Shown piece by piece: positions 1 through 4,218 of a stretch of DNA of 4,218 bases. The first letter of the stretch is position 1, and each line of letters begins with the position of its first letter. Origin of the DNA: a virus (taxonomy: Duplodnaviria; Heunggongvirae; Uroviricota; Caudoviricetes); IMG/VR virus record IMGVR_UViG_2711768017_000017. One strand, 5' to 3'. A program made the translations under genes and the position numbers. The notes beneath the pieces are model-generated. The model worked only from the letters and a program-made list of their open reading frames with translations. It was not told the DNA's origin and ran no database searches.

Positions 1-220
1 GGTTATCGCTCGCCACGGGAATATCTGCGGCAGCGGGCTTGTAATGGGTTAAGTGATAACAGATGTCTGGAAATATAGGGGCAAATCCAATCGTCGCCGT
101 ATTCCCGTATTAACAGAGACCGTAGCCCGACGGGGAACTCCTTCTGCGCGAGTGTGCGGGAATAATCAAAAACGATGCACACCGGGGTTACCGGGTACAC
201 ATATTTCATCATGCCAGCGA

Positions 221-249
221 GTCCGGTTCTGGCACGGAAGAAACCGGAC
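221..249 (-). other. Stem-loop (8-bp stem GTCCGGTT / AACCGGAC, 13-nt loop) lying 9 nt downstream of the stop of the minus-strand 141-aa ORF; possible transcript 3' end structure, but no U-tract follows on the minus strand
   Basis: Direct reading: 221-228 gtccggtt and 242-249 aaccggac are perfect reverse complements. On the + strand a weakly T-rich run (gttatgattt) follows; on the minus strand none does. The strand assignment is therefore uncertain. Confidence 0.3.
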
Positions 250-257
250 GTTATGAT

Positions 258-683
258 TTAGTGCGGAAATATTTGTGTAGTGTTCTGTATGTTCTCAGTA
301 AAGAGTAATGAATTATCAAAGGTATAGTAATACCTTTTGTTTTCGTGGATATTTGTAATCCATCTGAAAACCCCTGCTGTAGCAAGATTTTTCCTGTATT
401 CGTAAAATGATAACTCTCCTGATTTGAATCCTTTTAAGGTGGCTTCTATAAGGCATTTATTTTTTGAAAATCTTACATTTACAACCTTACCCTGTCCTTT
501 TATTAAAACCGTATTATCGTTTTCAAGAACAAGATGAATATTCTCTGTGGCTAAATAGTAAATGTAATGTGAGACATTGTGACGTTTTAGTTCAGAATAA
601 AACCAGTGATAGTTTAAATTATTTCGCACTTTATCGAATATTTGTTTAAAAATGGCAACCTGAGCCATTGTAGTACCTTCCAT
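258..683 (-). CDS. Hypothetical protein, 141 aa from the first ATG (likely 136 aa from the ATG at 666-668); strongly AT-rich moron-like gene of unknown function
   Basis: Uninterrupted 141-codon ORF in DNA of roughly 27-30% GC, where stop codons are frequent by chance, so an ORF this long is unlikely to be accidental. The second ATG (666-668) is preceded by GGAAGG with a 7-nt spacer; the first ATG (681-683) has no Shine-Dalgarno-like sequence. No transmembrane-length hydrophobic stretch and no motif I recognise. Composition contrasts sharply with the roughly 55% GC packaging genes. Confidence 0.65.
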
Positions 684-725
684 GTGATATGAGGGGGCGT
701 AGTCTGCACGATTATCTAAATTGCT

Positions 726-959
726 TCAATCTGGTCTAACCTGTTTTCTGAGCAATTCAGTAATGTCACTCTTTTCTTTGTTTGCTTCAGGCGAAACTCT
801 TTTTTCTGAGCACAGTCTCCGGCGGCAGGCTTCAATGACCCAGGCTGAGAAATTCCCGGACCCTTTTTGAACAAGAGCGATGTTAATTTGTTCAATCATT
901 TGGTTAGGAAAGCGGATGTTGCGGGTTGTTGTTCTGCGGGTTCTGTTCTTCGTTGACAT
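726..959 (-). CDS. ylcI: Small basic DNA-binding-like protein, 77 aa, with ribbon-helix-helix (Arc/CopG-like) features; resembles YlcI/DUF3950 proteins found next to cos in lambdoid prophages (recalled from memory, not verified)
   Basis: ORF with ATG at 957-959 preceded by AGGG about 7 nt upstream. Arg/Thr-rich basic N-terminus (RTRRTTTR), then a predicted beta-strand (NIRFP) followed by two helices (NQMIEQINIALVQKG and NFSAWVIEACRRRL), as in RHH folds. The position immediately upstream of cos/Nu1 on the opposite strand matches where ylcI sits next to nohD in E. coli DLP12, as I remember it. Confidence 0.7.
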   Translation of the reverse strand: MSTKNRTRRTTTRNIRFPNQMIEQINIALVQKGSGNFSAWVIEACRRRLCSEKRVSPEANKEKSDITELLRKQVRPD

Positions 960-1147
960 GAGGTTGCCCTGTATTCAGTGTCGCTGATTTGTATTGTCTG
1001 AAGTTGTTTTTACGTTAAGTTGATGCAGATCAATTAATACGATACCTGCGTCATAATTGATTATTTGACGTGGTTTGATGGCGTAGATGCACGTTGTGAC
1101 ATGTAGATGATAATTATTATCATTTTGCGGGTCCTTTCCGGCGATCC

Positions 1148-1180
1148 GACAGGTTACGGGGCGGAAGGCGCGCGGGTTTT
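1148..1180. promoter_or_regulatory. cosN: cosN, the terminase nicking site; predicted 12-nt cohesive-end segment at 1159-1170 (GGGCGGAAGGCG), flanked by lambda-like AGGTTACG and CGCGGGTTTTCGC
   Basis: Flanks match the lambda right-end/left-end junction as I recall it (..GATCCGACAGGTTACG | 12 nt | CGCGGGTTTTCGCTATTTATGA..). The location is 189 bp upstream of the Nu1 ATG, consistent with lambda (Nu1 begins at nucleotide 191 of the genome). Confidence 0.75.
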
Positions 1181-1347: not shown

Positions 1348-1867
1348 ATGGAAGTCAACAAAAAGCAGCTGGCTGACATTTTCGGTGCGAGTATCCGTAC
1401 CATTCAGAACTGGCAGGAACAGGGAATGCCCGTTCTGCGAGGCGGTGGCAAGGGTAATGAGGTGCTTTATGACTCTGCCGCCGTTATAAGATGGTATGCC
1501 GAAAGGGATGCTGAAATTGAGAACGAAAAGCTGCGCCGGGAAGTTGAAGAACTGCGGCAGGCCAGCGAGACAGATCTCCAGCCAGGGACTATTGAGTACG
1601 AACGCCATCGACTTACGCGTGCGCAGGCCGACGCACAGGAGCTGAAAAATGCCAGAGACTCCGCTGAAGTGGTGGAAACCGCATTCTGTACTTTCGTGCT
1701 GTCGCGGATCGCAGGTGAAATTGCCAGTATTCTCGACGGGATCCCCCTGTCGGTGCAGCGGCGTTTTCCGGAACTGGAAAACCGACATGTTGATTTCCTG
1801 AAACGGGATATCATCAAAGCCATGAACAAAGCAGCCGCGCTGGATGAACTGATACCGGGGTTGCTGA

Positions 1868-1893
<26 letters not shown>
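1348..1893 (+). CDS. nu1: Terminase small subunit gpNu1 (181 aa), lambda-type
   Basis: The translation MEVNKKQLADIFGASIRTIQNWQEQGMPVLRGGG... matches lambda gpNu1 along its length as I recall it, including the N-terminal winged helix-turn-helix that binds the cosB R elements. Lies immediately downstream of cosB; stop TAA at 1891-1893. Confidence 0.97.

Positions 1894-4218
<2,325 letters not shown>

Follow-up and report, generated by a model that had tools for sequence, protein, structure and literature searches.

The closest described counterpart of the locus analysed here is the ynfO (b4533)-ydfO (b1549) pair of the Qin prophage of Escherichia coli K-12, in which a small gene of the YlcI/YnfO family is followed, on the same strand, by a gene of the DUF1398 family. 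The pair is already known as an object, made up of two catalogued families, and the literature on YlcI and DUF1398 gives no function for either of them. In bacteriophage lambda and in prophage DLP12 the order is ylcI, ybcW (lambda gp79, on the opposite strand), ybcV (lambda gp78) and bor. We studied a stretch of 4,218 nucleotides (nt) from a viral record of the Caudoviricetes (IMG/VR IMGVR_UViG_2711768017_000017), hereafter the window, whose numbering is used throughout. Its minus strand carries a ylcI/ynfO homologue and, behind it, an AT-rich DUF1398 gene. The original prediction, made from the letters of the window, saw in the two either a toxin-antitoxin (TA)-like or repressor-plus-cargo module or, alternatively, a conserved YlcI-like gene beside the cohesive-end site (cos) that is unrelated to the AT-rich gene. 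We consider it probable that the locus consists of a conserved, cos-adjacent gene for a small DNA-binding protein together with an optional DUF1398 moron, and that it is not a TA module.

The window shares with Qin the two families, their order and strand, the 57-nt spacer and the neighbours cos and nohA/Nu1. It differs from Qin in that its DUF1398 protein is 75% identical (synonymous divergence, dS, 0.67), with a hypervariable central part, and in what follows downstream, namely gnsB, ynfN and cspI behind ydfO in Qin, and a junction hairpin and then the insertion sequence (IS) IS2 in the window. With lambda and DLP12 it has in common a YlcI core that is 94.5% identical over 55 residues, a DUF1398 protein that is 76-78% identical, the location between Rz and cos and a hairpin past the DUF1398 stop. 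Unlike the window, lambda and DLP12 carry an insert of about 610 base pairs (bp) with ybcW between the two genes, their YlcI is 64 amino acids (aa) long and ends in a different tail, and transcription of ybcV reportedly starts in a divergent ybcV/ybcW promoter region.

Two wider classes of systems bear on the comparison. Morons are extra genes between conserved genes of related phages, with signals of their own and a deviant base composition; the concept is reportedly owed to Hendrix and colleagues, with lambda bor and lom said to be the classic cases. The window cassette is moron-like in its presence or absence, with sharp boundaries, between homologous phages, in a GC content that lies 12-20 points below that of the neighbouring phage genes, in its orientation opposite to the late operon and in its place within the lysis-cos accessory region next to bor. 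Unlike typical morons, it has a weak promoter match and a hairpin without a U-tract, and with its insertion the neighbouring ylcI open reading frame (ORF) also received a new 3' end. Type II TA modules with ribbon-helix-helix (RHH) antitoxins (ParD-ParE, CcdA-CcdB, VapB-VapC, RHH-type MazE) resemble the pair in that a small basic putative DNA-binding protein with a variable C-terminal tail is encoded first and a protein of about 136 aa second, on the same strand. The pair departs from these modules in its lack of obligate co-occurrence, in the discordant histories of its genes, in the orphan fold of the second protein and in showing no sign of toxicity.

Distribution and histories of the two genes

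Both minus-strand ORFs singled out by the original prediction are real genes, as judged by family matches and by purifying selection, the ratio of nonsynonymous to synonymous divergence (dN/dS) being 0.08-0.22 for ylcI and 0.08-0.35 for both genes together. The 77-aa ORF matches Pfam DUF3950 with E = 2e-20 (72.8 bits, cut-off 25) and NCBIfam YlcI_YnfO_N with 35.2 bits (cut-off 30), its product is 97% identical to K-12 YnfO, and all 28 of 28 aligned YlcI homologues match these family models. The longest form of the second ORF, 141 aa, matches Pfam DUF1398 (PF07166, YbcV/YdfO/YcgX) over its full length and above the curated cut-off (E = 3e-43), and matches the solved YdfO structure, PDB 2HH8, with E = 1e-69.

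The co-occurrence of the two families was checked by tblastn against 50,697 phage records and in 80 diverse IMG/VR YlcI loci, recovered with the BP-4795-type protein. Compilation of the results revealed that (i) 155 phage records contain a YlcI homologue and 43 a DUF1398 homologue, at least 112 records having YlcI without DUF1398, (ii) DUF1398 lies downstream in 23 of the 80 IMG/VR loci and is absent from about 55, (iii) approximately 36 of these 80 loci have HNH/TerS upstream and Rz directly downstream of ylcI, while 10 have Nu1 upstream, Rz downstream and no DUF1398, and (iv) neither the Stx phage BP-4795, where the DUF3950 gene stands between Rz and the genes for an HNH endonuclease and TerS/TerL, nor phage 434, where ylcI is followed directly by bor, has DUF1398 at this place. 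YlcI DNA was found at 9,865 places in 5,426 complete E. coli genomes, with up to 12 places per genome; among the matches listed, three O157 genomes have 8 or 9 YlcI places each, and among the DUF1398 matches listed, two other O157:H7 genomes have a single DUF1398 place.

DUF1398 is likewise found without YlcI. The chromosomal paralogue ycgX (44-53% identical) is of prophage origin (PMC3509220), and no function could be inferred for it (PMC12356324). It adjoins bluR in Escherichia, Shigella and Citrobacter chromosomes, where the nearest 4 kb hold no DUF3950 ORF, and nearly every E. coli genome has it. A homologue that is 38% identical lies on a metagenome contig without YlcI, and in Tritos-like phages and locus L122 a ybcW-ybcV cassette stands beside a DUF1441 gene, again without YlcI. 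The association of YlcI with DUF1398 is one-sided. Co-occurrence fails in both directions, the outcome that the original prediction had itself named as refuting, and this goes against the proposal of a TA-like or obligate repressor-plus-cargo module.

The scan of genome contigs was dominated by contamination with lambda control DNA. Assemblies labelled as species representatives, among them Kitasatospora, Brevibacillus, Flavobacterium, Pedobacter, Cohnella and Bradyrhizobium (loci L101-L121, L123, L124 and L133-L136), contain lambda either as 48.5-kb genomes or as nanopore control fragments of about 3.5 kb, and this accounts for "YlcI/YnfO" proteins that bear the label Staphylococcus, Bacillus or spider.

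The two neighbours also differ in divergence. In the comparison with Qin, the ylcI core has a dS of 0.015 and DUF1398 one of 0.67, a 45-fold difference; DNA identity is 95-100% over the stretch from cos to the end of the spacer, ylcI included, and drops exactly at the DUF1398 start codon. The GC content is 44.4% for ylcI (48.7% for its conserved core) and 31.7% for DUF1398, where GC at third codon positions is 30%. Two neighbours passed on together as one functional unit would not show such a gap in dS, and the dS and GC values together point to separate histories of ylcI and DUF1398. The GC gap had been offered in the original prediction as a mild argument for independent origins, and the synonymous divergence now backs it; together with the co-occurrence data, it favours the alternative of a conserved cos-side gene with an unrelated neighbour. 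Within DUF1398 there is mosaicism at the level of the allele, in that identity to the Qin allele falls to 57-82% in the central third (396-556, residues ~40-95) but amounts to 90-97% in the 5' part (~536-635) and in a stretch near the 3' end (~296-355).

These data bear directly on the possibility that the pair is a type II TA or abortive-infection system, in which YlcI would be an RHH antitoxin with a partner-specific tail, DUF1398 the toxin, and the two an autoregulated operon. Prophage accessory regions commonly hold such modules, and this locus lies in one; moreover, a small DNA-binding-like protein comes first, a protein of about 136 aa second, on the same strand and with a short spacer between them, and the Qin-type tail of YlcI is strictly linked to an adjacent DUF1398. 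However, the idea is already refuted as regards co-occurrence, and the dS values of the two neighbours speak against it as well. The spacer, at 57 nt, is long for a type II module, junctions in such modules being typically overlapping or a few nt. Furthermore, in lambda and DLP12 the YbcV protein, 76-78% identical, is encoded behind a YlcI without this tail and behind an opposite-strand gene, and ybcV is transcribed in K-12 (PMC7660256).

The AT-rich cassette and its expression

Pairwise comparison places DUF1398 within a facultative cassette. Between cos and position 797 (YlcI codon 54), where homology ends, the window has 95-97% identity to lambda, DLP12 and 434. In 434 and BP-4795 homology is back at ~189-200, so that these phages lack about 600 bp (~190-796) between flanks that are 86-97% identical, whereas in lambda and DLP12 it is back at 746, after the insert with ybcW. 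In 434, lambda and DLP12 the ylcI stop is trailed by an element of the form CCGGTTTCTTCC...CCGG, and the same element trails the DUF1398 stop of the window and those of lambda and DLP12; it marks the cassette junctions in the listed loci L140 (434), L139 (BP-4795), L001 (lambda) and L005 (DLP12), and stands next to ybcW in L122. Because the cassette is absent from 434 and BP-4795 and the same hairpin trails either ylcI or DUF1398, the DUF1398 gene looks as if inserted between the ylcI core and a hairpin that normally trails ylcI.

An intrinsic terminator after DUF1398 was considered but is not claimed, the hairpin being conserved but devoid of a U-tract and of ordinary folding energy; instead of a classical terminator, the CCGGTTTCTTCC element may be a recombination hotspot or an RNA end. 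Within the ylcI tail, 14 nt (TGCTCAGAAAA[A/C]AG, read on the coding strand) occur twice as a direct repeat, at 741-754 and 799-812 and in two different frames. The two copies bracket positions 746 and 797, the breakpoints at which the ybcW insert is found instead in lambda and DLP12, and the repeat is possibly a scar of short-homology recombination.

The edge of the cassette runs through ylcI itself. Across homologues, residues 1-50 (the DUF3950 core) are nearly invariant and residues 51-77 form a variable tail, each tail type being paired with a particular downstream sequence. The Qin-type tail was seen only beside a directly adjacent DUF1398 in 87 of 88 non-redundant loci. The tail type should indeed track the downstream sequence if its codons come from the edge of the inserted DNA, and physical linkage within 100 bp would account equally well for the association of tail and DUF1398. 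The DUF1398 gene is probably an AT-rich, moron-type passenger that came as a cassette of about 600 bp behind the ylcI core; with it would have come a ribosome-binding site of its own and, perhaps, a weak promoter, and the last 27 codons of ylcI would have been rewritten.

Since the upstream ATG (683) is, at its equivalents in lambda and DLP12, out of frame with the DUF1398 ORF and its conserved MAQV start, we place the conserved start at ATG 668, after the Shine-Dalgarno-like GGAAGG of the spacer; the resulting 136-aa product matches the RefSeq annotation in related genomes. The original prediction had combined a gap of 42 bp with a protein of 136 aa, two values that are incompatible: the former holds for the 141-aa ORF, and the 136-aa start gives 57 nt. 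In the window the ylcI and DUF1398 ORFs share one frame across the TGA stop of ylcI; in about half of the related loci the spacer (counted to the longest ORF) is 41 nt rather than 42 nt and the shared frame is lost. A protein cluster of 233 aa with 761 members (P0013) contains both a DUF3950 and a DUF1398 domain, and P0014 is likewise two-domain. A DUF3950-DUF1398 fusion or a programmed read-through of TGA was nevertheless rejected, as the fetched contigs have the TGA and gene calls with genetic code 4 give Trp. The clusters derive from short metagenome contigs (loci L006-L011) called with that code; they are a trap for domain-fusion (Rosetta-stone) inference and a warning about gene calling with the wrong code.

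As to transcription, the terminator scan found no hairpin or terminator in the spacer, and for this reason a ylcI transcript would probably read through into DUF1398 in the Qin-type layout. Transcription of ylcI itself would start between 960 and cos. This upstream region (960-1158) is 95-100% identical to Qin, lambda and DLP12, while in BP-4795 homology with the window begins at the ylcI start codon and 960-1158 has no homologous counterpart. It contains a 13-nt inverted repeat (1029-1041 / 1049-1061), and a promoter scan of 960-1158 found no consensus promoter on the minus strand. The GATAAT -10 element of the candidate site at the 3' end of ylcI and the AGACCAGATTGAA stretch accompany the DUF1398 gene in lambda and DLP12, where the spacing differs by 3 nt. 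In K-12, homologues of the pair are transcribed from cryptic prophages (PMC7660256, PMC4077768); ybcV and ybcW are divergently transcribed, their mRNA being down 9-10-fold in a pdhR mutant (PMC7660256), and ybcW-ylcI has been reported as a convergent overlapping pair (PMC12288877); according to these two reports, the DLP12 homologues of the two genes are transcribed separately. One IMG/VR contig (L187), which at first resembled a case of Qin-type YlcI without DUF1398, turned out to have an IS5 insertion in the spacer (at about window position 700), the locus being otherwise identical; the IS5 parts DUF1398 both from ylcI and from the candidate promoter.

It has to be weighed here whether YlcI is a DNA-binding repressor or activator of a leftward accessory unit that starts by cos, and would control whatever cargo is inserted there: DUF1398 in the window, bor in 434, and ybcW, ybcV and bor in lambda. 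The order is always ylcI ahead of its cargo, both on one strand (DUF1398 in the window and Qin, bor in 434), the conserved, basic core of YlcI is consistent with an extended arm and two helices, the inverted repeat lies 70-100 nt upstream of the ylcI start, and no terminator separates the two genes. On the other hand, about 36 of the 80 loci, as well as BP-4795, have a convergent Rz next to ylcI and no recognisable gene to regulate, an opposite-strand gene intervenes in lambda and DLP12, where ybcV is transcribed from the PdhR-dependent divergent ybcV/ybcW region, the region upstream of ylcI differs between the lambda type and the BP-4795 type despite the conserved protein core, and the RHH fold is unproven. 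We regard this explanation as unlikely; its weak form, a regulator followed by swappable cargo, is compatible with the data.

Fold and role of YlcI and DUF1398

The original prediction described the first product as a small basic RHH-like protein. Basic it is, with a net charge of about +9 by residue count and an N-terminal arm rich in Arg, Lys and Thr, but similarity to an RHH family was not found, and the fold is plausible yet unproven. No RHH family is among the Pfam matches of the 28 YlcI homologues at E up to 10, and a PDB profile search with YlcI returned no RHH chain. An hhalign comparison with Arc gave P = 0.017 over 22 columns at a probability of only 2.7%, with NIRFP in register with the NLRWP β-strand, and that with Mnt gave P = 0.22. 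The top fold matches, all of them non-significant, include the RHH antitoxins ParD, VapB and MazE; these matches, and the alignment with Arc, are what the fold offers in favour of a regulator, and the antitoxins among them speak for a TA module. The AlphaFold2 model of YlcI has an extended arm, not predicted as a strand, and helices at 19-32 and 34-53, at a predicted local distance difference test score (pLDDT) of 69. From such an arm, a candidate β-strand, and the two helices of the core, YlcI is probably a DNA-binding, RHH-like dimer.

For DUF1398, PDB 2HH8 is the solution structure of YdfO, obtained by nuclear magnetic resonance (NMR) within structural genomics and deposited without an assigned function. 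A search for structural relatives of the fold returned only 2HH8 itself, an orphan fold without likeness to known toxin folds, and searches gave no toxin family in Pfam and no significant match in PADLOC or NCBIfam. Membership of a defence system was rejected, the only PADLOC match (Csx23, E = 0.025) being at chance level. Nor was there any signal of a "head protein" (the PHROG label) or an "envelope protein" (a label from an old annotation of lambda). The gene is not part of the head module, is on the opposite strand and has a non-essential lambda homologue, and we treat both labels as annotation carry-over. Among reports on homologues, lambda gp78 is dispensable (PMC10695390), the ASKA over-expression clone of ybcV reached stationary phase in a glycogen screen (PMC2853380), and ydfO mRNA is up after ionic-liquid shock (PMC4077768); an oxidative-stress resistance ascribed to YdfO over-expression in the last of these was not used, as it may reflect a ydfO/yfdO mix-up. 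The dispensability of gp78, the over-expression clones and the NMR sample obtained without reported toxicity, and the orphan fold without a significant toxin match add to the points already raised against a toxin curbed by YlcI, and we hold a TA or abortive-infection module to be extremely improbable.

The position of YlcI raises a further possibility, namely that it serves the packaging site as a cos-proximal DNA-binding accessory factor, for example by shaping cos or by blocking packaging or late read-through in the lysogen, with DUF1398 as an unrelated passenger. In support, the place of ylcI is constant: it lies beside the packaging region, with the lysis module on its other side, and diverges from the gene for the small terminase subunit, whether the terminase is of the Nu1/A or of the unrelated HNH+TerS type, and YlcI/YnfO genes have been reported in capsid-forming phage-inducible chromosomal islands that have packaging genes of their own (PMC13612085). 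Against this, transcription of ylcI runs opposite to that of the late genes and its expression at the time of packaging would be poor, and Tritos-like phages have the ybcW/ybcV cassette by a gene of the packaging module without any YlcI. In addition, minimal cos fragments suffice for lambda packaging. Such a role seems to us very unlikely.

We thus return to a conserved cos-side gene with an optional passenger. The pair is the Qin-type version of the lysis-cos accessory region of lambdoid prophages, composed of two units with separate histories, neither of which would need the other. The ylcI/ynfO gene is fixed beside the packaging site and reads leftward, away from the terminase genes and against the late operon. 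Being antisense to the late operon, as is bor, both genes are candidates for expression in the prophage rather than in lytic growth. DUF1398 would most likely be non-essential and expressed from the prophage for the benefit of host or prophage, rather than a toxin held in check by YlcI. A bolder proposal joins several of these elements: YlcI would be an RHH regulator heading a leftward, lysogeny-expressed cargo slot, a recombination hotspot between the ylcI core and the CCGGTTTCTTCC hairpin would have allowed DUF1398, ybcW/ybcV and bor to be swapped in, and DUF1398, with its duplicated α/β fold and its mosaicism, would be a protein of phage-host conflict, such as a superinfection-exclusion, defence or counter-defence factor. 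As a joint claim we find it quite unlikely.

Several observations weigh against the interpretation we prefer. First, YlcI lies within 0.7 kb upstream, on the same strand, of every DUF1398 of the Qin, lambda or DLP12 type (79 of the 79 phage-type DUF1398 genes with enough upstream sequence), and a second set gave YlcI near the phage-type DUF1398 in 77 of 78, plus one case with IS5; this constancy is also expected from a regulator with its cargo. Second, the linkage of the Qin-type tail to DUF1398 formally resembles the partner-specific C-terminus of an antitoxin. Third, the RHH assignment of YlcI is without statistical support. Fourth, the signals expected of a moron are weak, the candidate cassette promoter being a mere 9/12 match to the consensus in a region whose count of sigma-70-like matches is not above that of shuffled sequence, and the junction hairpin having an ordinary folding energy (z = -0.57). 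Finally, that DUF1398 is most likely not toxic is drawn from indirect evidence in the literature.

The window within its prophage

In the window the right end of a lambdoid E. coli prophage meets its left end, with the gene order IS2 end, DUF1398, YlcI, cos, Nu1, terminase A and W, the genes for Nu1, the terminase large subunit and W all being on the plus strand (Table 1). Prophage homology starts at about base 90; IS2 cuts off the lysis side, leaving about 170 bp beyond the DUF1398 stop, and for this reason the prophage is probably defective. The terminase large-subunit gene is broken by a run of 135 N (3343-3477), which is an assembly gap or masking. The 12-nt cosN variant has six consecutive differences from lambda in its right half. 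Of 301 fetched loci, 13 carry the variant cosN 34-mer and 148 the canonical one, and this minority allele could affect packaging compatibility. The top sigma-70-like match of the region (1096-1123, plus strand; GTGACA, 16 nt, TATCAT; 10/12) points rightward to cos and Nu1 and lies inside a palindromic AT-rich stretch, ATGATAATTATTATCAT. An Rfam scan of 1-1400 gave nothing near any family threshold.

Table 1. Coordinates of the features of the window discussed in the text
Feature	Position	Strand	Remarks
IS2 end	1..89	not assigned	matches IS2 ends at 99%; E. coli has thousands of copies
Facultative AT-rich cassette	190..796	-	ylcI C-terminal tail, spacer, DUF1398 and trailing hairpin; pairwise blastn breakpoints
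Junction hairpin (GTCCGGTT, 13 nt, AACCGGAC)	221..249	-	just past DUF1398 stop; no U-tract
DUF1398 gene, homologue of ydfO, ybcV, lambda gp78	258..683	-	longest ORF 141 aa; conserved start ATG 668
ylcI-DUF1398 spacer	669..725	-	57 nt to conserved start, 42 nt (684-725) to longest ORF
Candidate sigma-70-like site (TAGACC, 16 nt, GATAAT)	711..738	-	3' end of ylcI, upstream of DUF1398; 9/12
ylcI/ynfO homologue, 77 aa	726..959	-	PF13132 DUF3950, NF041551 YlcI_YnfO_N, phrog_949
Region upstream of ylcI to right cohesive end	960..1158	-	lambda right end aligns up to 1158
cosN cohesive-end position	1159..1170	+	variant GGGCGGAAGGCG vs lambda's GGGCGGCGACCT
Nu1/NohD terminase small subunit	1348..1893	+	divergent from ylcI; GC 52.7%

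Overall, the outcome is a clear negative on the TA module, together with a corrected start codon for DUF1398 and a corrected spacer length. The pair is a copy of the catalogued E. coli y-genes ynfO and ydfO, found in thousands of genomes and in lambda itself. Both families are therefore present in the best-studied of phages, and YlcI is kept by the packaging site across unrelated terminases.

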